Both the position numbers and the translations under genes were made by a program. The notes under the pieces were generated by a model. The model was not told where the DNA came from. It saw only the letters and a list, made by a program, of their open reading frames with translations, and ran no database searches. From Candidatus Omnitrophota bacterium (GTDB taxonomy: Bacteria; Omnitrophota; Gorgyraeia; Zapsychrales; Zapsychraceae): a DNA stretch of 58,087 nt. Below are positions 38,953 through 49,691 of this stretch, one piece after another. The stretch spans positions 1 to 58,087 of the forward strand of contig JAJDCB010000008.1 in the NCBI GenBank assembly GCA_029261065.1, given 5' to 3'. Numbering within the stretch: the stretch's first letter is position 1; each line of letters starts with the position of its first letter.

Positions 38953-40338
38953 TCACTTATCAAGAATGTCGTATTTCTTCATCTTATTATACAAAGTTGT
39001 TCTATTGATACCCAATGTAGCAGCGGCTTTATTTCGATTCCAATTACAATCATTGAGAATAGAAATAATATGTTCTTTCTCTGGTTGCTCAACAACCTTT
39101 TTTAAAGACTTTTCATCACGAGTTGAACTAACTGGTGATTTTTCAAATTTAGCTAAACTGGGAACATCCCACTTATTAGCGATTTCGGTCTTAGCCATGA
39201 TAACAGCACCTTCAACAGCATTCTCTAACTCTCTGATATTTCCAGGCCATGTATAATCAAGAAACAATTTCTTTACCTCATTAGAAATAGAAGTTACTTT
39301 CTTCTTATTATCATGACTATATTTTTCTAAATAAAAATTAACAATTGACTCAATGTCTTCTCGTCTCTCACGAAGAGGAGGCATTTGAATGCTAATGACA
39401 TTAATACGATAATAAAGGTCTTCTCTAAAGTCACCCTTCTCAACTAATTGGGCTAAATCTTGATTGGTAGCCACAATAATCCGCGCATCTGCTTTTCGGG
39501 TAACGTTATCACCAACGCGTTCGAAAACGCCATCTTGTAGAACACGTAACAACTTAACTTGTAAACCTAATGAAAAAGCATCAATTTCATCAAGAAATAT
39601 AGTTCCTCCGTCGGCAAATTCAAAACGCCCTTCTTTATCTTTAATGGCTCCAGTAAAAGCACCTTTCACATGACCAAAAAGTTCGCTTTCCAATAATGTC
39701 TCAGAGATAGCTCCACAGCTAATTTCTACAAACGGCTTATTTCTACGATGAACATCTGTTTGATGAATGGCACGTGCAACCAATCCCTTTCCAGTACCAC
39801 TCTCTCCTGTAATATGTATCGTTGCGTTTGTACTAGCAACAGAATCAATAATGTTATAGACACTTTGAATTTTATGAGAAGATCCAATCATGTCACAAAA
39901 TGATGGTCTTTGATTCTTAGCAATTAGCTCCTTAAGGGCTTTATTTTCTTCCAAGATTTTTTTCTTATCGGCAATTTTTTGAATAACAATCTTAATTTCA
40001 TTATCATTGATAGGTTTTGTAATGTAATCAAAAGCCCCTTTTTTCATAGCTTCAACAGCAGATTCGATAGAACCGTAGCCTGTAATTAATATGACTTCTA
40101 TTTCGTCATAAGTATTTTTAATTTCTTCTAATAACTGCAAACCCGTCATTTTAGGCAGCTTAAAATCTGTTACAACAATATCAACAGGATTCTTTTTTAA
40201 TTGCTCTAAGGCATCTTCAGCGCTTGGGGCCATTTGAACACGATAACCTTCTATACGTAGAATTTCATATAAAGATTCTCGGATTAAAGGTTCATCATCG
40301 ACAATTAAAATTTGAAATTGACTATTCTGCTCATTCAT
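38953..40338 (-). CDS. Sigma-54-dependent response regulator (NtrC family, PrsR-like role inferred)
   Basis: Receiver ILIVDDE..VTDFK; GESGTGK; GAFTGA; FLDEI; WPGNIRELEN; Fis-type HTH. Start placed at MNEQ. Confidence 0.95.
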   Translation of the reverse strand: MNEQNSQFQILIVDDEPLIRESLYEILRIEGYRVQMAPSAEDALEQLKKNPVDIVVTDFKLPKMTGLQLLEEIKNTYDEIEVILITGYGSIESAVEAMKKGAFDYITKPINDNEIKIVIQKIADKKKILEENKALKELIAKNQRPSFCDMIGSSHKIQSVYNIIDSVASTNATIHITGESGTGKGLVARAIHQTDVHRRNKPFVEISCGAISETLLESELFGHVKGAFTGAIKDKEGRFEFADGGTIFLDEIDAFSLGLQVKLLRVLQDGVFERVGDNVTRKADARIIVATNQDLAQLVEKGDFREDLYYRINVISIQMPPLRERREDIESIVNFYLEKYSHDNKKKVTSISNEVKKLFLDYTWPGNIRELENAVEGAVIMAKTEIANKWDVPSLAKFEKSPVSSTRDEKSLKKVVEQPEKEHIISILNDCNWNRNKAAATLGINRTTLYNKMKKYDILDK

Positions 40339-41635
40339 CTGGGTCACCATATATAGGTAAACTTATAATAAAGGCTGTTCCTTTATTCTCTGCACTTTCA
40401 ATATTAATTGTACCGTTATAGCTTTTAACGATTTCTCCCACAATGGTTAAGCCCAGACCGCAGCCTTTATCCATATCTTTTGTGGTGAAAAAAGGTTCAA
40501 AAATCTTATTAATATTTTCTTTAGAAATTCCAACACCATTATCTGAAATTCTCATTTCCAAATCATCTTTCTTATTTGTAATCTCAATGGAAATCTCTCC
40601 ATCCTCACCAACAGCATCAATCGCATTGTGAATGATATTTGTAAGAATACGTTCCACACCTAAGTCTAATATTAAAGGAATATCGTTAGATAAATTTTTA
40701 TTAATTGTAATATTTTTGTGCGCCACATCCATATTCCTACTATTTAAAGCATGATCAAGAGCGTGCGCTACATTTACTTTTTGTTGAGGTGGCGTGTCAT
40801 TGCGGGAACACGCTAGTAAGTTTTTAACAATATTAGCCATTCTATTTAAACCATGTTTGATTTCCATTAAATACCCTTGAACAACGTCATCTTCTTTTGT
40901 ATGTTCAAGGCAAAGATTGGTATAACGCAAAACACCATCTAGCGGATTGTTAAATTCATGAGCGATCCCTCCTGCCAATTTACCAATAGACGCCAATTTC
41001 TCATGGATAACTATTTGATTCTTTAAAATATTTTTCTCTTGGTTCGTTTGGCCTAACTTATCTTTTAAATCTTTCGATTCCTTTACAATCAGCCTAAACT
41101 TTTGATAGAGCTGAATACGTCTAAAATTTAAAGCTATCTGACTTGTCAGAAAATCTAGTAGCTGCATATCATCTTTTGTAAATCGCTTTCCAGATTCTTT
41201 ATCAGTAATGTTTATGACACCTATTAGATTATCCTTAACCATCAAAGGCGCACAAATAAAAGAAGATGTGACATAACTTTTTCTCGGTTTAAAATTTAAA
41301 AACCTGTCATCCTTTGCTATGTCATCAACGAAAACAGGTTGTTTCGACTCAGCCACACGACCAACAATTCCCTCCCCCATACGTTTAACCATACTTTTAG
41401 TTTCAGCTTGAGCCATCCCTTGAGACGTTTTAAGTTCTAAATCATGACCGTTTGATCTTAAAATAAAAATGGAGCCCCTTGAGGCTCCATATAAATCCAT
41501 AATACCTTTAAGCGATATTTCTAATAGCTCATTGGCATTAAAAACGGTATTAACTGTTTCGCAAATCTCACTAATTCTTTCAAACAACTCAACTTTAGTA
41601 AGATCTTCTATTGTTGAATTAAACTTTGAGACCAT
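40331..41635 (-). CDS. Cytoplasmic GAF-domain sensor histidine kinase (PrsK-like role inferred)
   Basis: GAF domain; H-box IAHEFNNPL; N-box NIIHNAIDA; DNGVG; FEPFFTTK; GCGLGL. Confidence 0.93.
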   Translation of the reverse strand: MVSKFNSTIEDLTKVELFERISEICETVNTVFNANELLEISLKGIMDLYGASRGSIFILRSNGHDLELKTSQGMAQAETKSMVKRMGEGIVGRVAESKQPVFVDDIAKDDRFLNFKPRKSYVTSSFICAPLMVKDNLIGVINITDKESGKRFTKDDMQLLDFLTSQIALNFRRIQLYQKFRLIVKESKDLKDKLGQTNQEKNILKNQIVIHEKLASIGKLAGGIAHEFNNPLDGVLRYTNLCLEHTKEDDVVQGYLMEIKHGLNRMANIVKNLLACSRNDTPPQQKVNVAHALDHALNSRNMDVAHKNITINKNLSNDIPLILDLGVERILTNIIHNAIDAVGEDGEISIEITNKKDDLEMRISDNGVGISKENINKIFEPFFTTKDMDKGCGLGLTIVGEIVKSYNGTINIESAENKGTAFIISLPIYGDPDE

Positions 41636-41641
41636 TTTTTA

Positions 41642-42532
41642 TTAATTCTCTATAACGATATTTTCATCTCTTAAAAGCTTAAAACTTTGCACCATTCGCT
41701 CTAAGATTTTTTGGAAGGGATGATTGGGGTTTTGACTTAAAAAATCCTGATAGATTCGAATTGGGATATCATAGTTACCTAATTTTGTTGAAGCTATAGT
41801 ATTAATCGTTTTAATTGTTGTCTCTGCACGATCTACCGTCCAATACTTTGGATCTGGAAATTTAAGAAACAAGTCACCCAAGTCCTGTAGGGCATTTGTC
41901 CATTTCTTCTGAGAAATATAACAAATAGACTTAGAGCGAATAGACTGGAACTCAATAAGAGTATCAGGATGTGCGGCAATCAATTGATCATAATGAAGGA
42001 TAGCATCATTAAAGGCTTTTCTCATTTTCACTGGCTCATTTTTAGATTCGTAAACTTGCGCAATCAAAATGGGTGTTCTAATTCCTAAATCAGTTAAGGG
42101 ATAATTTTTCATTATCCTTTCATAAACTATCAATACATTGTCAAAATCCTTCTCCATTGCAAAGGTACGCCCAATTTCAGATAAAGCACTAACACCGACA
42201 TCATCACTGTCATAACTAGTAATAACTTCTTCAAAGACACCTCTCGCCTGTTCAAAATCTTTCTGTATCATAAAAATTCGTCCAGATTGAATATGAGCTA
42301 AAGGCGTTAAAGGGGAATCAGGATAACGCACCGTAAACCTTCGATAGCGATTAAATATTTGTTTAAAATTAATATCCGGAATAATTTTTGGATCTTTAGA
42401 ATATTCAACAAACTTATTATTAATTCGCGTTAATTCGACTTCAGCTGAATAACCACTTCCCTTATCTAAAAAAGATAGTATTAGGAATAATCCAATCAGA
42501 ATCCCAATAAATATTACTAAAGCTTTTTTCAT
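41642..42532 (-). CDS. Membrane-anchored tetratricopeptide repeat protein
   Basis: N-terminal TM; repeated YP.S/TPL/DL..A and A...F/Y..I...YP TPR signatures. Confidence 0.8.
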   Translation of the reverse strand: MKKALVIFIGILIGLFLILSFLDKGSGYSAEVELTRINNKFVEYSKDPKIIPDINFKQIFNRYRRFTVRYPDSPLTPLAHIQSGRIFMIQKDFEQARGVFEEVITSYDSDDVGVSALSEIGRTFAMEKDFDNVLIVYERIMKNYPLTDLGIRTPILIAQVYESKNEPVKMRKAFNDAILHYDQLIAAHPDTLIEFQSIRSKSICYISQKKWTNALQDLGDLFLKFPDPKYWTVDRAETTIKTINTIASTKLGNYDIPIRIYQDFLSQNPNHPFQKILERMVQSFKLLRDENIVIEN

Positions 42533-43401
42533 TCACTTTCCCTTAATAGTAAACATCGCATAACAATGGCTGTATAGACGATACCATCAATAATAAACAT
42601 TATAAAAATACTGAAAACCAAATATACAATCTTTAGCTCTGGAAATTGTTCATCAAGACTAAATGATTTATTGAGTATGATCAAAATAAGAAAGATAAGC
42701 GAAGGTAAGGCAACGACAAAAAAAGTATAAAAAAAAGATTTCGATAACACTTTTAAATTAACCCATAGCGCTGAAAATACTTTTCTTTTTTCTATAACGA
42801 TTATTGGAATAACATAAATAAATAATACCGAGACAAATATATTGATCAATAAATTAAATAAAGGCGCTCCATCAATCACGAGACGTTTGAGCAAATAAAA
42901 AGGACCTGTTGTTGAACGGATAATGATGGCTCTATGGATCGCAATATTGTAAAGTTCAGAAAATAAGATAACAAATCCAAAAGATATAAGCCCTATAACA
43001 ACATAGTGTACGTAATTGGGCATATTCTCTTTTAATACCTCGTTCATTCGCACTTTATCTCCATTATTAATTTTCACAATAATAGAAACCATCAGAGCAA
43101 TACAAAAACATGTCAAAAAGACATAAATAAACGCTTGAACATACATATTTTGGAATATAGTTGGCACTAGGAAAAGATTTAGAGGGTAATGCAGATATTC
43201 TTCAGCCCAAAAAGTCTTAATTATGGGTGTAAAAAATACTTTTAGTGGAAACCGCGGGTAAAAATAAAGAATCTCCAGATATAACAATTTTACAAATGCA
43301 ACAATGCACAGTGGAAACAATATTTCTTTATTACTTAATAATGTCGTAACAGCAGACTTTAATAACGAAAAAACATTGCTTTTGGCTTTATTTTTATTCA
43401 T
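42529..43401 (-). CDS. Polytopic membrane protein, unknown function
   Basis: About 6 hydrophobic segments; 4-bp overlap with the TPR gene. Confidence 0.7.
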   Translation of the reverse strand: MNKNKAKSNVFSLLKSAVTTLLSNKEILFPLCIVAFVKLLYLEILYFYPRFPLKVFFTPIIKTFWAEEYLHYPLNLFLVPTIFQNMYVQAFIYVFLTCFCIALMVSIIVKINNGDKVRMNEVLKENMPNYVHYVVIGLISFGFVILFSELYNIAIHRAIIIRSTTGPFYLLKRLVIDGAPLFNLLINIFVSVLFIYVIPIIVIEKRKVFSALWVNLKVLSKSFFYTFFVVALPSLIFLILIILNKSFSLDEQFPELKIVYLVFSIFIMFIIDGIVYTAIVMRCLLLRESE

Positions 43402-43518: not shown

Positions 43519-43602
43519 TGCCATTCATAAAATCTTTTATGAACAATTTTAACCGTAACATGATATACCGCAGCATTTTAAGGCAAGATCTTCAAATCAG
43601 AC

Positions 43603-43644
43603 AAAAAAATAAGGTAGATTATGTGTATAACCTACCTTATTTTT
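43603..43644 (-). terminator. Intrinsic terminator closing the PEP-CTERM unit
   Basis: 13-bp inverted repeat AAAAATAAGGTAG/CTACCTTATTTTT (43605-43617/43632-43644), giving a T7 run on the minus strand. Confidence 0.7.
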
Positions 43645-43690: not shown

Positions 43691-43963
43691 TTATTTTTTC
43701 TTATTTTTGAAATAAGCCATTGCTACTAAACCAGTTCCAAGAAGCAACATAGTTGCTGGCTCTGGATTAACTACTGTAGCTACAGTACCGCCACCACCAG
43801 CACCTGCAGCAGCTCCACCGCCGCCACCAGCTCCACCAGTACCAGTAAAAAGGCTACCAAGAGCAGCACTTCCACCACCACCGCCGCCTTGACATCCTGC
43901 AACTAAAGGAAGGAGCACTAACATGCTTACCGAGTGTACTATTTTTTTAATTTTTGATAACAT
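43691..43963 (-). CDS. 90-aa Gly-rich lipoprotein with PEP-CTERM sorting signal
   Basis: Lipobox LVAG|C24; Gly/Ala linker; NPEPATMLLLGTGLVAMAYFKNKKK. Confidence 0.85.
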   Translation of the reverse strand: MLSKIKKIVHSVSMLVLLPLVAGCQGGGGGGSAALGSLFTGTGGAGGGGGAAAGAGGGGTVATVVNPEPATMLLLGTGLVAMAYFKNKKK

Positions 43964-44017: not shown

Positions 44018-44890
44018 TTAGCTTCTTTTTTTTCTACGAGTCATAGCAAAACCAACTAAACCAGAACCGAATAATGCCATTGTCATTGGTTCGGGAATTG
44101 GTTGAACTCGGTCTACTAAATAAATTAAATCATCATAATCTTCATCACCTAATTTTCCTGTTTGAAGATTTACAGGCTTATCTTCCCAAGCAATTAAATA
44201 TGGATCTTTAAATTCATATAGAAAAGCAGGAGCAGCACCAATTTGAACCCAAACTTCTTGCCCAGCTAAAGCTGACAATCTATAAGTTAACATATGGTCA
44301 AGACCATCTGGATTTAAAGCTGGATTAGAATCCCAAACATCAATAGGTCCAGCCGTTGGTACACTTTCTATAGACCAACCAAAGTTAGTTCCAGGAGCTA
44401 ATGGACTTAAACCTGCTGTAAAAGGTGTCGCTGCAGAAGTTCCATCACCAGTAAATCCAAAACCACTTTGCCCAGTAAGACCAACAACAGGAATTTTTAC
44501 ACCAGGAGCAGCTGTTGAATAAACTCTTAATGAATTACTATTAGCAGCTGTTAAAGAGATAAGAATAAATGTTCCATCATTATTCTGATCGCTTAAATCT
44601 TGCCATGTAGAATCCGGCCCTGTAAATTGCAAATTATCAACATCTGAATTATGCGTATGTGCTGTGCCTAACAATAAATTAATAGCATCATTAATATCAG
44701 CAGGATTTGGAACACCGGCAAGATTATCATTATCATCGTTTGGCGTACTAACACCAGGCAAATTACCGCCTCCCTGTAGAATCCCATAAACATCGTTTGC
44801 AATATCCGGTGTAAATGGTTGTGCGAAAACGTTTGAAGCTACAAACATAAACATTATCGCTAACATTACATTCAATTTAACTTTTTTCAT
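44018..44890 (-). CDS. PEP-CTERM sorting domain protein with DUF4114-like acidic motif
   Basis: Signal peptide VFA|QP; IAWED...GDEDYDDLIY; IPEPMTMALFGSGLVGFAMTRRKKRS. Confidence 0.9.
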   Translation of the reverse strand: MKKVKLNVMLAIMFMFVASNVFAQPFTPDIANDVYGILQGGGNLPGVSTPNDDNDNLAGVPNPADINDAINLLLGTAHTHNSDVDNLQFTGPDSTWQDLSDQNNDGTFILISLTAANSNSLRVYSTAAPGVKIPVVGLTGQSGFGFTGDGTSAATPFTAGLSPLAPGTNFGWSIESVPTAGPIDVWDSNPALNPDGLDHMLTYRLSALAGQEVWVQIGAAPAFLYEFKDPYLIAWEDKPVNLQTGKLGDEDYDDLIYLVDRVQPIPEPMTMALFGSGLVGFAMTRRKKRS

Positions 44891-44997: not shown

Positions 44998-45855
44998 TTA
45001 ACGAGCCCCCTCGCCCGTTACAACCACACGAAATGTTCTCAGGATAATATTGATATCCGCCCAAAAACACATTTTCTTTATATAGAGAAGATCATATCGC
45101 AATTTTTTCCTAACATCTGCAATAGTCTCATCATAGCGATGCCAAACTTGAGCTAAACCTGTAATTCCTGGTTTCACCATTAATCTCTGCTCATAATTAG
45201 GCATCGTTTCCTTAAATTTATCTACAAATACTGGTCTCTCTGGTCTTGGACCAATAACACTCATCTCGCCACGTAGTACATTAAATAACTGAGGCAACTC
45301 ATCTAAATGAGCCTTTCTTAAAAAACCTCCAACAGGTGTAAGCCTATTATCATTTTCCGCAGCCCAAACAGGCCCTGTTTCTTTTTCAGCATCTATTTTC
45401 ATCGTACGAAATTTATAAATCTGGAAAGATTCTCCATCTTTACCAACACGCACTTGAGAATAAATAATGGGCCCCTTAGATGTCAATTTTACTAATATAG
45501 CCGTTAAAAGCAGCATTGGTGACAATACAATAAAACCAGCCGTTGAGGCCACAAGATCAAAACTTCTTTTAGCAAAAGCGTATGTTCTACGAACAAAACT
45601 TACTATCATCCCTAAAAAGCCCCCCCCAAAAAGAGCTAACGTAGATGGCTCAGGAACCATAGTCCTGTTATTTTTAGCTTCAGTGCTCAAATTTTCTAAA
45701 CCTTGAACATCGCTGGCCAATTGACCATTTTGAAGATTTTCTTGTGTATTAACAAATGACACTGTTGCCCATGCAGAAGCACACATGAAGCTTATGATAA
45801 GCGTCATTAATGTTAGCTTGAATCTTTTAATTTGTTTTTGTCTTTTTCTACTCAT
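44998..45855 (-). CDS. Priming phosphoglycosyltransferase (Bac_transf/monoPGT) with N-terminal signal peptide and internal PEP-CTERM motif
   Basis: ASAWA| signal; VPEPSTLALFGGGFLGMIVSFVRR (aa 67-90); then KRSFD, IYKFRTM, LDELPQLFNVLRGEMSVIGPRPE, KPGITGLAQV. Confidence 0.92.
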   Translation of the reverse strand: MSRKRQKQIKRFKLTLMTLIISFMCASAWATVSFVNTQENLQNGQLASDVQGLENLSTEAKNNRTMVPEPSTLALFGGGFLGMIVSFVRRTYAFAKRSFDLVASTAGFIVLSPMLLLTAILVKLTSKGPIIYSQVRVGKDGESFQIYKFRTMKIDAEKETGPVWAAENDNRLTPVGGFLRKAHLDELPQLFNVLRGEMSVIGPRPERPVFVDKFKETMPNYEQRLMVKPGITGLAQVWHRYDETIADVRKKLRYDLLYIKKMCFWADINIILRTFRVVVTGEGAR

Positions 45856-45908: not shown

Positions 45909-45925
45909 AGCAAATTGCGTGCCAA
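45909..45925 (-). promoter_or_regulatory. Sigma-54 (-24/-12) promoter
   Basis: Minus strand TTGGCACGCAATTTGCT, a consensus match to YTGGCACG-N4-TTGCW, 54 bp upstream of the ATG at 45855. Confidence 0.9.
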
Positions 45926-46064: not shown

Positions 46065-46105
46065 ATGTCTACATTCCTCAACATAATGTAGTGGACACTC
46101 AACAT
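46065..46105. promoter_or_regulatory. Tandem palindromic enhancer-like sites (candidate activator binding sites)
   Basis: ATGTCTACATTCCTCAACAT (46065-46084) and ATGTAGTGGACACTCAACAT (46086-46105): both ATGT-N12-ACAT sharing CTCAACAT, 21-bp periodicity, 140-180 bp upstream of the -24 element. Confidence 0.65.
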
Positions 46106-46168: not shown

Positions 46169-46807
46169 TTACGGTAGGTATTCCCTAAGATACGGATAAA
46201 TATCTTGGATAAACTCCTTTAAATCAGCTTCAACTTCTGGTGTTCCTTTTTTAAAAGCAGCTGCAGAAATGCGTATGAGCGCACTACTTGAAGGCTTGCC
46301 TAAAAGTGTTTTTATCGTTATTAGTCCTTGTTGCTTCCAATAGCTGGCAGTATAAGAATTTCCCACTTTAAACCAATAATAAGCGAGATGCTCAAAGCGC
46401 CCTTGCTGAAGATTAAGCCTGTGAGCCTTTAAATCAATCTCGGCTGAGTCAAACTTCAGGGGAACCGTTTTATTGCTGGTAATAGAAAAACCACCTCCCG
46501 AAAAACATATCTCCGGAGGATGTGACACTTTTCTGTTATTCTCAGAATAAACGATGAAAAGATCGGCAACCTTGCCATCTTCTGTTTTGTACCTTCTTGA
46601 AAAAGCATTGTCTGTTTCCAGAATTTGATATTCATAATCACTAATGATTAACTCTTCTGAGCTCCAGCCTTTAACAGTTTTAGGAAAAAGATGGATATTA
46701 ACCGTGTCAGACTGTTTATAAACCTTGAAATACAAATACCAAGAAATTAAACAAGAAAACGCCATCACACACAAAATAACAATAAATTTTTTATCACTTT
46801 TTTTCAT
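46169..46807 (-). CDS. epsI: EpsI family exosortase-associated protein
   Basis: FPKTVKGW, RRY, HPPEICFSGGG, YYWF, ALIRIS; adjacent to the exosortase; start placed at MKKSDK. Confidence 0.88.
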   Translation of the reverse strand: MKKSDKKFIVILCVMAFSCLISWYLYFKVYKQSDTVNIHLFPKTVKGWSSEELIISDYEYQILETDNAFSRRYKTEDGKVADLFIVYSENNRKVSHPPEICFSGGGFSITSNKTVPLKFDSAEIDLKAHRLNLQQGRFEHLAYYWFKVGNSYTASYWKQQGLITIKTLLGKPSSSALIRISAAAFKKGTPEVEADLKEFIQDIYPYLREYLP

Positions 46808-46921
46808 AATTATGGCGAAATCAATTAGCAAAAACAATACTTATTGATTTCTTTCCTATGCAAAATATTAAATCTATAATTTTTAGCAATATTTGCCATT
46901 GCTAATTAATCTCTCCTATTC

Positions 46922-47746
46922 CTATTCCAACAATTTTTTAACAGCAAATAGCAGAATAAACGCTAAGACAAAAATCATATAACCCGTTAAATCATGCCAA
47001 AAACCCGTGGCATACTGTGCACCCCAAATTTCACTAACACAAGAAAGCATAACAACCCGACAAACATTTGTAACAATAGCAATCGGAATGGTTGAAAGAA
47101 ATAATATCACTCTCTTAACATGACTACCCTGCATCCAATAGGCAAAAATACTTCCTAACGCTGTCAGAGAAATTAACGACCTTAAACCACTACAAACGTC
47201 GTCGACGATGACCTGTGTATTACGCATAATGATAAGACTCCCCTTTTGTAAAGCAGGGATACCCATGTTGTTTAATAAAATGGCTGCAATTTCAGCAGCA
47301 AACATTTTTAATTTGAAACTAATATTTACAATGAGATGTTGCGGTAAAGGAATCATAAAGGCTAGAAAGAAAATGGGGAAAGCAATTTTCTTTAATGTCT
47401 TTGATCCAAAAAAGAATAAAATAAAACCTACTAAAACAATCAGTGTTGAGTACCCAGAACTAAAATAGATACGAATATTTGGCAAAGAACTCACTATGTG
47501 AATTCCCATCCCCAACAAAATAAGCCTCATCCCCCAAGGGGACTCCTTCCATTTGATTAACTTTAACTCATCTTTTAATTGCCAAATAAGATATATAGAA
47601 ACGATTGGAATCAAAAATCCATGACTATAATAAGAATCTTGCGCCCACCATCGATCCCACATCCAATTATATGTAGGAAAATAAGCCGCAAAAAATAAAC
47701 CTAAAGCAAAAATGTGTTTTTTGTATTTACTTAAAATCTCATTCAT
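46922..47746 (-). CDS. Exosortase (EpsH family)
   Basis: YYSHGFLIP, F.IPLP, triad Cys (DVCSGLRSL), Arg (NVCRV) and His (FWHDLTG); polytopic membrane protein. Confidence 0.93.
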   Translation of the reverse strand: MNEILSKYKKHIFALGLFFAAYFPTYNWMWDRWWAQDSYYSHGFLIPIVSIYLIWQLKDELKLIKWKESPWGMRLILLGMGIHIVSSLPNIRIYFSSGYSTLIVLVGFILFFFGSKTLKKIAFPIFFLAFMIPLPQHLIVNISFKLKMFAAEIAAILLNNMGIPALQKGSLIIMRNTQVIVDDVCSGLRSLISLTALGSIFAYWMQGSHVKRVILFLSTIPIAIVTNVCRVVMLSCVSEIWGAQYATGFWHDLTGYMIFVLAFILLFAVKKLLE

Positions 47747-47747
47747 A

Positions 47748-48896
47748 TTAACTCCTCGCCTTCTCCCACTTGACTTCTTGTTTTTGCAGCAAAAACCTTA
47801 AAAGACCAACTAACGCTGAAAAATTCAATAAACAAAAAACATAAGGCACATAACATAATTTGGCAATAAACTTTAGAATACCATATGTTTGATATCTTGC
47901 CAAGGCACCTACAAAAGCCATTAAATAAAAAAGAAACTGCAAAAATAGTATTATTTGATAAAACTCCTCATTAAGCAAGGCCAAATTCAACAAAAAAACA
48001 AAGATAAGACAATACGGCATAACGACCCTTAAAAACTTATGAGAAAACAATTGAACCGCAACCGGACTTAAGCCTGGCACAAACATCCCTTTAAAAAGGC
48101 CAAAAATTTGATAATTCCCATACAATGTTCGCGCTTTTCTTCGGTACTCTTCTTTGGGACTGTCAGCCACCTCGTCATAGGCACGCGCATTATCGTCAAA
48201 ATAAGCACGATATCCTTGTTGAATAATTTTTAAAGGAACATACATATCATCTAACACCACAGACTCTGGAATTGGCGTATAAAGTTCTTTACGTAATACA
48301 TAAATCGCGCCTGTCGCGCCTAACATCGAATGCCATTTAGCCTCATAGAGCCTAATAAATTTTTCATAACTCCAATAAAGATTTACTCCTCGTGCCGTCG
48401 CCCCTTCCTTTTTGGAGAACACTAACTCGCCACTAACACATCCCACCGATGGATCAGCCAAATTGCTTACTAATACTTTAAGAGCATTCTTATCAAAAAG
48501 TTGACGGGCATCCGTAAATAACAGAATATCGTACTTAGCCTTTGGTACTAATTGATTAAGGGTAACCATTTTGCCATGGCGTCTATCATCTTTTACTAAA
48601 TGAACCCTTGAATCATCAATAGCCTCAATAAGCTCATTGGTCTTATCTGTTGAACCATCTGAGCCGATGATGATTTCAATTTTTTCCTTCGGATAGTCTA
48701 GTGAAAGGAGATTTTCTATCTTGGGAACAATCACATCTTCTTCGTTATAAACAGATAAAACAATCGACACCGACGGTTCAATGGAACTTTTTTTAACCCT
48801 CTTCTCATTAATACTAGCTAACAAATAGATAGCCAAAGGATAACCAAAATAACAATAGACAATTAAAATAATAAAAAACCAAAATAAAACTTCCAT
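47748..48896 (-). CDS. Family 2 glycosyltransferase (IcaA/PgaC-like, membrane-bound)
   Basis: VYNEE, SDGSTD, FTDAR, GATGAIY, LDDM; flanking TM segments. Confidence 0.88.
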   Translation of the reverse strand: MEVLFWFFIILIVYCYFGYPLAIYLLASINEKRVKKSSIEPSVSIVLSVYNEEDVIVPKIENLLSLDYPKEKIEIIIGSDGSTDKTNELIEAIDDSRVHLVKDDRRHGKMVTLNQLVPKAKYDILLFTDARQLFDKNALKVLVSNLADPSVGCVSGELVFSKKEGATARGVNLYWSYEKFIRLYEAKWHSMLGATGAIYVLRKELYTPIPESVVLDDMYVPLKIIQQGYRAYFDDNARAYDEVADSPKEEYRRKARTLYGNYQIFGLFKGMFVPGLSPVAVQLFSHKFLRVVMPYCLIFVFLLNLALLNEEFYQIILFLQFLFYLMAFVGALARYQTYGILKFIAKLCYVPYVFCLLNFSALVGLLRFLLQKQEVKWEKARS

Positions 48897-48917: not shown

Positions 48918-49691
48918 TTATTTAAAAATTTTCACCAATCCACTTCTTAACCAATTGTATCCAGATTCTCCAATTATTCTTTGTACAATTTGTTTAAGAA
49001 CATTTACTAACCACTCTCTTTTTGGCACCTCTAATAAGATGGCTTGTTCAAATCTTTTCATAGTCCATGTTCTTTTAACAGCCACACGTGTCAAGCAGCT
49101 CTCCGTTACACGCGATGGTTTATTAGAAATAAACACATTGTTATAACCAACTTCTCGCGCCATTTGAATAATTTTATTATTGCAAAATCCTCTAGGGATA
49201 GATATATCTTCGACGAGGATATCAAGATTTTTTTCGATAGTTCTTTTTGAAGCTGCAAGCTCCTGTTCAATCTGAGTATCCAAAAGATTTGTTAAAATTT
49301 CATGACTTAATCCATGCGATCCAATGATCATACCCGCCTCATGCAATTTGCGGATTTGATCCCAACTCATGTAGCCTTCTTTTCCTACTCTATTTACAAT
49401 AATAAAAAAATAAGCGCGCGCATTAAACTCTTTTAAAATTGACAAAGCCTGCTCATAATTACTTAATTCACCATCATCAAACGTTAAGATTACCTGAGCT
49501 TCATCATTCTCATCTCGATCAGTAATCGTCGTCATGCTATAATTTCGGCTTTTAAGCCAAGAAATTTGATTACGAAAATTTTCTATAGACACATCATAAA
49601 TATCGGCCCCCGTATCTCGTAATTTCGAAACGGTACCATTCTCAATGGTAATACCGTGGTACATTAAAATAAGCGGTAAATTACTTTTCAT
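48918..49691 (-). CDS. Polysaccharide deacetylase
   Basis: LMYHG, LTFDDG, IGSHGLSH. Confidence 0.9.
   Translation of the reverse strand: MKSNLPLILMYHGITIENGTVSKLRDTGADIYDVSIENFRNQISWLKSRNYSMTTITDRDENDEAQVILTFDDGELSNYEQALSILKEFNARAYFFIIVNRVGKEGYMSWDQIRKLHEAGMIIGSHGLSHEILTNLLDTQIEQELAASKRTIEKNLDILVEDISIPRGFCNNKIIQMAREVGYNNVFISNKPSRVTESCLTRVAVKRTWTMKRFEQAILLEVPKREWLVNVLKQIVQRIIGESGYNWLRSGLVKIFK

Follow-up and report, generated by a model that had tools for sequence, protein, structure and literature searches.

What can a protein do that carries a sorting signal at either end and next to nothing in between? This question is raised by a small gene of a Candidatus Omnitrophota bacterium (assembly GCA_029261065.1, contig JAJDCB010000008.1). 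The window, that is, the whole stretch of 58,087 nucleotides that was analyzed, contains the open reading frame 43691..43963 (-), the translation of which is MLSKIKKIVHSVSMLVLLPLVAGCQGGGGGGSAALGSLFTGTGGAGGGGGAAAGAGGGGTVATVVNPEPATMLLLGTGLVAMAYFKNKKK. An earlier note on this DNA had described the product, hereafter the mini-protein, as a lipobox and a PEP-CTERM signal flanking a Gly-rich linker with no folded domain, and had put forward a number of possible functions. The features of the locus are collected in Table 1.

The Mini-protein Comprises Two Sorting Signals and a Linker

Inspection of the N terminus revealed basic residues at K4, K6, and K7, an uncharged hydrophobic core, and the residues L-V-A-G immediately before Cys24. 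Together with L-V-A-G-C24, the three Lys residues match a lipobox rule of the PROSITE PS51257 type, which specifies K/R in the first 7 residues, an uncharged hydrophobic core, [LVI..]-[AST..]-[GAS]-Cys, and Cys at 15-35. The assignment of the mini-protein as a lipoprotein combines this pattern rule with conservation. At the C terminus, the sequence scored above the cut-offs of both Pfam PF07589 (24.5 bits; cut-off 20.7) and TIGR02595 (23.6 bits; cut-off 16). A GGAG-type ribosome-binding site is present 5' of the ATG.

The linker (aa 25-66) consists of 42 residues, of which 20 are Gly and none is charged; with Cys24 it forms the predicted mature part (C24-N66), which contains no Lys. The estimate that ~43 residues, 20 of them Gly, would be left after both cuts was therefore exact. 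A reach of 15 nm had also been suggested. This value stands as an upper bound on contour length (43 x ~0.36 nm), but a disordered 43-mer normally spans well under it.

An AF2 model obtained with the family alignment (mean pLDDT 64) showed no structure beyond a helix at each terminus and a weak one at residues 31-39, the last of which overlaps the LGSLF motif. Sequence, curated models, and AF2 thus agree on the architecture that had been described, and, as modeled, the mini-protein is two sorting signals and a linker, with no folded domain.

Table 1. Features of the mini-protein locus (positions in the window)
Feature	Position	Strand	Basis or remark
Mini-protein gene, lipobox/Gly-rich/PEP-CTERM	43691..43963	(-)	90 aa; stop codon 43691-43693
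Lipoprotein-type signal peptide, aa 1-23 (predicted)	43895..43963	(-)	sequence, homolog alignment, AF2 helix 2-23
Cys24 codon TGT, predicted lipidation site, +1 of mature protein	43892..43894	(-)	conservation
Disordered Gly/Ala/Ser/Thr linker, aa 25-66	43766..43891	(-)	composition; AF2 pLDDT <50 at residues 41-60
LGSLF motif, aa 35-39 (L35-F39), third conserved family element	43847..43861	(-)	motif vs shuffles; weak AF2 helix 31-39
PEP-CTERM sorting signal	43694..43765	(-)	PF07589 and TIGR02595 matches
PEP motif within N66-P67-E68-P69	43757-43765	(-)	sequence
TM helix, aa 70-85 (16 hydrophobic residues)	43709-43756	(-)	sequence
KNKKK tail of mini-protein	43694-43708	(-)	sequence
Intrinsic terminator, 18-bp stem and U7, ends PEP-CTERM transcription unit	43598..43644	(-)	-25 kcal/mol, z -5.1 vs shuffles
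290-aa PEP-CTERM protein, type I signal peptide, DUF4114-like domain	44018..44890	(-)	domain matches
Priming sugar phosphotransferase (Bac_transf), first gene of unit	44998..45855	(-)	domain matches, synteny
Sigma-54 -24/-12 promoter of three-gene unit, TGGCACGCAATTTGC	45910..45924	(-)	only perfect match in window
EpsI, exosortase-associated protein	46169..46837	(-)	domain matches
Exosortase	46922..47746	(-)	only one in genome; ~3 kb from mini-gene
Membrane GT2	47748-48896	(-)	weak PgaC/IcaA-like similarity, 82 bits (cut-off 422)
CE4 polysaccharide deacetylase	48918-49691	(-)	without signal peptide
Downstream operon, 3' of terminator	38953..43401	(-)	four genes
Orphan 290-aa multi-pass membrane protein (MEM290)	42529-43401	(-)	first gene of downstream operon
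TPR protein	41642-42532	(-)	downstream operon
Soluble GAF histidine kinase	40331-41635	(-)	downstream operon
Sigma-54 response regulator	38953-40350	(-)	downstream operon

The Mini-protein Belongs to a Large Family of Short Proteins

The earlier note had pointed to related genomes as a place to look for further lipobox-Gly-PEP-CTERM micro-proteins, and a large family was indeed found. A word-based search recovered eight homologs of 90-125 aa, all of which contain L-P-x-x-x-G-C, a Gly-rich spacer, and NPEPA[TS]MLLLG..AM.Y.K. Scanning of species-representative genomes yielded ~24 loci, nearly all labeled Candidatus Omnitrophota, with part of them bearing the loose label "uncultured Planctomycetales." In an alignment of 31 sequences, C24, P67, E68, P69, A70, L73, and L74 were invariant and G23 was near-invariant. 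When 1.84 billion cluster representatives were searched with a profile, the family grew to 258 clusters at E<=1e-10, the best homolog having an E value of 1e-26.

Among the best 150 profile hits, 147 are 76-149 aa in length and match end to end, and a folded domain was absent from all short family members examined. The proposal that homologs might possess a real domain, of which the present copy would be a deletion remnant, was rejected on the uniformly short length of these homologs. Two of the profile hits, P0010 (2500 aa) and P0087 (1375 aa), consist of 6-9 complete PEP-CTERM units head to tail without stop codons, each unit comprising a signal peptide, a domain, and PEP-CTERM. These may be arrays translated under the wrong genetic code, products of read-through, or genuine polyproteins.

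Conservation is strongest near the ends of the protein. The family-specific extended motif [ILV]-A-T-[ILV]-H-N-PEPA[TS]MLL is well conserved, with P-E-P-A invariant, and an oligo-Gly run lies right behind the lipobox Cys (C-[QNG]-G3-6) in most members. Even remote members, which come from different families within the class of the source organism, retain all three of lipobox, Gly-rich linker, and PEP. Tandem copies of the mini-gene at L008:9634-10228 and L011:5188-5867 likewise have conserved ends and diverged linkers. Within the linker, 54-66% of members carry an LGSLF-type motif (in general form, hydrophobic-small-small-hydrophobic-hydrophobic) some 9 residues downstream of the Cys, a feature that the earlier note had passed over. 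The motif occurs in 10-21% of shuffled linkers, and the observed value was matched by 0 of 500 shuffles.

Across 150 small family proteins, the linkers are 29-92 aa long (median 48), and their composition is 29% G, 15% S, 10% A, and 0.7% K+R. Two functions that had been suggested are affected by these values. Because the linkers are variable and mostly short, a membrane-to-membrane staple becomes the least likely of the proposed functions. As for a glycan carrier, the presence of Ser/Thr gives the idea weak support, but the content of these residues is variable (median 19%) and their positions are not conserved.

The Lipobox Is Near-invariant and Specific to the Family

The lipobox rule is matched by 140 of the 150 small family proteins and by most locus-derived copies, and nine more of the 150 depart from it only through an odd residue (P, Y, H, W, D, or N) at -4 to -2. 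The simpler pattern x-[GAS]-C after a hydrophobic core is kept in 149 of the 150, so that the Cys on whose conservation the earlier reading depended is nearly universal. It is present in every complete locus-derived copy. Asp at +2 was found in none of the 150 proteins. The sole member without the lipobox Cys (1/150), P0145, has Phe at this position (FIYGF); the change may be natural, giving a variant that is not lipidated, or it may reflect decay of the copy or an error in sequencing.

When all fetched loci were considered, a lipobox was present in 24 of 26 small PEP-CTERM open reading frames as opposed to 1 of 43 larger ones (Fisher's exact p 3e-15), and the lone larger match (AWA-C) resembles a type I site. 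In the source genome, the five PEP-CTERM proteins encoded outside the operon of the mini-gene and the adjacent DUF4114 protein are 200-290 aa long, with type I signals and longer passenger regions. As judged by these patterns, the lipobox is specific to the mini-protein family among the PEP-CTERM proteins of the same loci. A PEP-CTERM mini-protein of a different kind was found in a Desulfatitalea metagenome-assembled genome (L026:838-1044). This 60-aa protein has a type I signal (ASA↓AF) and would be left with about a dozen mature residues, indicating that minimal exosortase substrates without a lipobox occur outside Omnitrophota.

The Mini-gene Is Part of a Sigma-54-controlled Exosortase Cassette

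The genes surrounding the mini-gene are arranged in the order CE4 deacetylase, GT2, exosortase, EpsI, priming sugar transferase, mini-gene, membrane protein, TPR protein, kinase, and sigma-54 regulator. The same arrangement recurs in ~22 Omnitrophota loci, with GT2 and CE4 deacetylase forming the conserved upstream part of the cassette. The mini-gene is the last of a three-gene unit that also encodes the priming transferase and the DUF4114-like PEP-CTERM protein, and the sigma-54 promoter of the unit is kept in 20 of 22 loci. Upstream of this promoter are two ATGT-N12-ACAT palindromes (46065-46105 (-)), which are likely binding sites for an enhancer-binding regulator.

Homologs of the priming transferase are encoded in every syntenic locus (48-70% identity). 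The protein has a signal-peptide-like N terminus, a short ectodomain, and an internal PEP-CTERM-like segment at aa 67-90 (PF07589, 26.8 bits), followed by the catalytic domain. The exosortase is unclassified, the nearest types being XrtD, XrtW, and XrtA, all of which scored below cut-offs.

On the 3' side of the terminator, translational coupling links the MEM290 gene with those for the TPR protein, kinase, and regulator. MEM290 gave no Pfam or NCBIfam match even at E 10, and its AF2 model (pLDDT 82) had no meaningful PDB neighbor (best Foldseek E 0.26, TM 0.44). It may be a new accessory or sensor of the exosortase system. The idea that MEM290 is a split PrsK N terminus was not supported.

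The mini-gene lies directly upstream of the MEM290/TPR/kinase/regulator operon in 20 of 20 loci with a MEM290 homologue; none was found in the fetched sequence of four divergent loci (L016, L017, L019, and L021). The adjacency persists even in L002, L003, L006, and L010, where the mini-gene has been separated from the exosortase cluster, and in L002, L003, and L010 it forms a single-gene sigma-54 unit, with the promoter 52-82 nt upstream. This position fits a signaling role and a role as a tether equally well.

Distribution and Processing Machinery

A full-length family member was identified in 33 of 401 sampled Omnitrophota genomes, all of the same class as the source genome. Exosortase is encoded in 31 of these 33 family-positive genomes, compared with 119 of the 401 overall (p 6e-16). 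The two exosortase-less genomes are G388, in which the mini-gene is at a contig end, and G356, an 89%-complete assembly. Given that only about one-quarter of the exosortase-positive Omnitrophota genomes (31/119) carry the family, it is not required for the system. MEM290 was found in 103 of the 401 genomes and tracks exosortase, not the mini-protein, on which ground a dedicated partnership of mini-protein and MEM290 was dropped as a candidate.

The source genome contains eight PEP-CTERM matches above cut-off. Its lgt and lspA genes are adjacent and both score above cut-offs, as do two full-length Lnt paralogs (G000 C19:219731-220882 and C19:102049-103113). BamA is also encoded, together with a full-length LolCE-like protein that scored 334 bits, just under the cut-off of 362. 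The combination of Lgt, LspA, two Lnt proteins, BamA, and the LolCE-like protein indicates that the organism is a diderm with a complete triacylation pathway. Two Lnt paralogs in one genome are unusual, and the pair may be relevant to the finishing of lipoprotein N termini.

Proposed Role of the Mini-protein and Alternatives

The reading that we favor, and to which we assign an even chance of being correct, is built by analogy: the mini-protein would be lipidated at its N terminus, processed by exosortase at its C terminus, and would tether exosortase-handled matrix (polysaccharide or conjugates) to the envelope. It is favored by the co-regulation of the mini-gene with a polysaccharide-initiating enzyme and by the near-restriction of the family to exosortase genomes. 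We infer lipidation, cleavage, acceptor, and tethering role alike. In this scheme, Sec would export the precursor, and the inner membrane would hold both ends, one through the signal peptide and the other through the C-terminal helix, with the Lys tail in the cytoplasm. Lgt would add diacylglycerol to Cys24, LspA would cut between G23 and C24, and Lnt would N-acylate the new N terminus. The adjacent exosortase and EpsI would recognize NPEPA and the helix and remove the C-terminal anchor, whereupon the new C terminus would be passed to an acceptor by analogy with sortase, archaeosortase (ArtA), and rhombosortase. The product would be a lipid-anchored, disordered peptide of ~43 residues, uncharged to acidic, for which Lol-type transfer to the outer membrane would be feasible only once the C-terminal helix is gone. 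It would serve as a flexible tether in the style of Braun's lipoprotein, although unrelated to Lpp.

A more exacting version, which we put forward tentatively and rate as unlikely, is that of a covalent connector with two ends, in which Cys+1 is triacylated at one end and, at the other, exosortase couples the C terminus to one of three partners: the polysaccharide of the locus, another lipid, or a lipid-linked precursor whose synthesis the co-transcribed priming transferase initiates. If this version is true, no bacterial protein before the mini-protein would have been shown to rely on two distinct sorting systems for its anchoring, and a substrate of ~43 residues without Lys/Arg would make the exosortase acceptor readable by top-down mass spectrometry. 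Free amines made by the CE4 deacetylase are kept only as a speculation regarding the exosortase nucleophile, given that this enzyme, which is without a signal peptide, probably acts in the cytoplasm.

Several other explanations have to be weighed. That the open reading frame is a chance one, or the decayed remnant of a larger PEP-CTERM protein, might be supposed from its shortness, its low complexity, and its GC-rich codons in an AT-rich genome. Hundreds of homologs of the same size, the conserved ribosome-binding sites, promoter, and synteny, and the presence of a terminator leave this notion scarcely credible, and the sequence comparisons indicate that the mini-gene is a genuine gene, neither a chance open reading frame nor a deletion remnant. 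A regulatory function deserves more attention, although we consider it improbable. The mini-protein could be a sentinel or feedback substrate, a cheap reporter of exosortase capacity, with the MEM290/TPR/GAF-kinase/regulator module sensing either unprocessed copies, fixed at both ends in the inner membrane, or the released product and tuning the sigma-54 PEP-CTERM operon accordingly. The invariable adjacency to the regulatory operon in loci with MEM290, which extends to the detached copies, would suit such a function, as would the single-gene sigma-54 units beside the presumed regulator and the lack of a passenger domain to deliver. Regulators often adjoin their targets, however, and the adjacency may be mere regulon layout; moreover, the distribution of MEM290 implies that the sensor module works without the mini-protein, and a lipid anchor would be unnecessary.

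The processed peptide might itself form the matrix or a surface brush, as an elastomeric, hydrogel-like, or anti-adhesive coat that is either anchored or released and connects to no polysaccharide. The Gly-, Ser-, and Ala-rich and almost uncharged composition is consistent with such a coat, as is the wide range of linker lengths, and the mini-gene is present in tandem in L008 and L011, which suggests that its dosage is important. We nevertheless judge it rather improbable: conservation sits at the termini and in the short LGSLF motif with no repeat pattern, a structural polymer would be expected to be much longer than these peptides, and co-transcription with the priming sugar transferase points toward a polysaccharide link. 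It is also conceivable that only one of the signals is used, the mini-protein being either a lipoprotein that keeps its C-terminal helix as a second anchor or a PEP-CTERM substrate cut by signal peptidase I whose Cys serves, for example, in a disulfide. Both processing steps are predicted from sequence only, and the V/I-x-G ahead of the Cys (V-x-G in the mini-protein) could in principle be cleaved by signal peptidase I. A conserved +1 Cys after [GAS] is, however, a hallmark of signal peptidase II sites and not of type I sites; together with the joint strong selection on both signals (the near-invariant +1 Cys and the invariant P-E-P-A) and the near-confinement of the family to exosortase-positive genomes, this makes the use of a single signal quite unlikely. 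Finally, the lipopeptide could be an acceptor, instead of or besides being a substrate, onto which exosortase transfers other PEP-CTERM proteins, on the model of the Gly5 of lipid II used by sortase A. The oligo-Gly run directly after the lipidated Cys and the two Lnt paralogs would agree with this, but the sole free amine after LspA is that of the Cys, which is normally acylated by Lnt, the linker is essentially without Lys, and the mini-protein has a complete PEP-CTERM signal of its own. We regard an acceptor role as highly unlikely, and the tether remains the preferred reading.

Comparison with Known Systems

The PEP-CTERM/exosortase system (TIGR02595, PF07589) was described by Haft et al. 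in 2006 (PMC1569441). With its substrates, such as the Zoogloea floc protein PepA, the mini-protein shares the C-terminal PEP, membrane helix, and basic tail and an N-terminal signal peptide. Also in common with these systems are a polysaccharide locus that encodes exosortase and EpsI, a low-complexity passenger, the sigma-54 promoter, and an NtrC-type regulator, kinase, and TPR protein nearby. Unlike typical PEP-CTERM substrates, it has a signal of the lipoprotein type with a near-invariant Cys, and the passenger of the family comprises ~30-90 disordered residues and no domain. The local response regulator scored 410 bits with PrsR (TIGR02915; cut-off 502.6), and the local kinase, which is soluble, scored 102.7 bits with PrsK (TIGR02916; cut-off 300) over the kinase core only. 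By these scores, the local sigma-54 regulators appear to be analogous to PrsK/PrsR (Haft 2006) and not equivalogs.

Neither Haft et al. 2006 (PMC1569441) nor the Haft 2023 preprint mentions a lipobox-bearing or miniature PEP-CTERM protein, and the architecture was not found described in literature on lipobox or lipoprotein together with PEP-CTERM or on Omnitrophota together with PEP-CTERM. Against the best specific NCBIfam hit, NF038129, the mini-protein scored 22.9 bits (cut-off 65) and matched with its C-terminal part only, and a family member is labeled by NCBI simply as "PEP-CTERM sorting domain-containing protein." The family is thus unnamed and without a matching curated model or a description in the literature searched, as the earlier note had surmised for a PEP-CTERM protein of this form.

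The existence of exosortases was predicted in 2006. These enzymes occur widely among environmental bacteria, and a typical substrate is a large protein, possibly glycosylated, that is difficult to analyze. In 2025, exosortase attachment was still worded as "possibly covalently linking" (PMC12188702). The family described here would be a substrate pared to two sorting signals and a short linker and kept across hundreds of sequence clusters, which would make the mini-protein a minimal, mass-spectrometry-friendly probe for exosortase chemistry. The family can easily be modeled as a new protein family, and it adds detail to the picture of a conserved exosortase cassette under sigma-54 control in Omnitrophota.

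Other systems offer partial parallels. In the ArtA/PGF-CTERM and rhombosortase/GlyGly-CTERM systems, a membrane-embedded enzyme cleaves a C-terminal signal and couples this to lipid attachment; if exosortase acted in the same way, the mini-protein would carry a lipid at both ends. The ArtA and rhombosortase substrates, unlike the mini-protein, are large and folded and are without an N-terminal lipobox, and the enzymes, motifs, and hosts differ. For MYXO-CTERM/myxosortase substrates, lipidation of a Cys within the sorting signal has been proposed, and the protein reaches the surface after an intramembrane protease has released it (PMC11980579). There, the Cys is located in the C-terminal tag, whereas that of the mini-protein is in a classical N-terminal lipobox and its C-terminal tag is PEP-CTERM.

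With Lpp of Escherichia coli, the mini-protein shares the nature of a very small lipoprotein, and in Lpp the C terminus is joined to an envelope polymer by a transpeptidase. Lpp is a helical trimeric coiled coil with a C-terminal Lys that L,D-transpeptidases link to peptidoglycan, whereas the mini-protein is Gly-rich and disordered, has no mature Lys, ends in a PEP-CTERM signal, and has no sequence relationship to Lpp. For the proposed tether, Lpp is nonetheless the closest functional analogy, and an analogy only. The mini-protein is in this sense a candidate for the missing link of envelope to exopolysaccharide and a possible equivalent of Braun's lipoprotein for the matrix.
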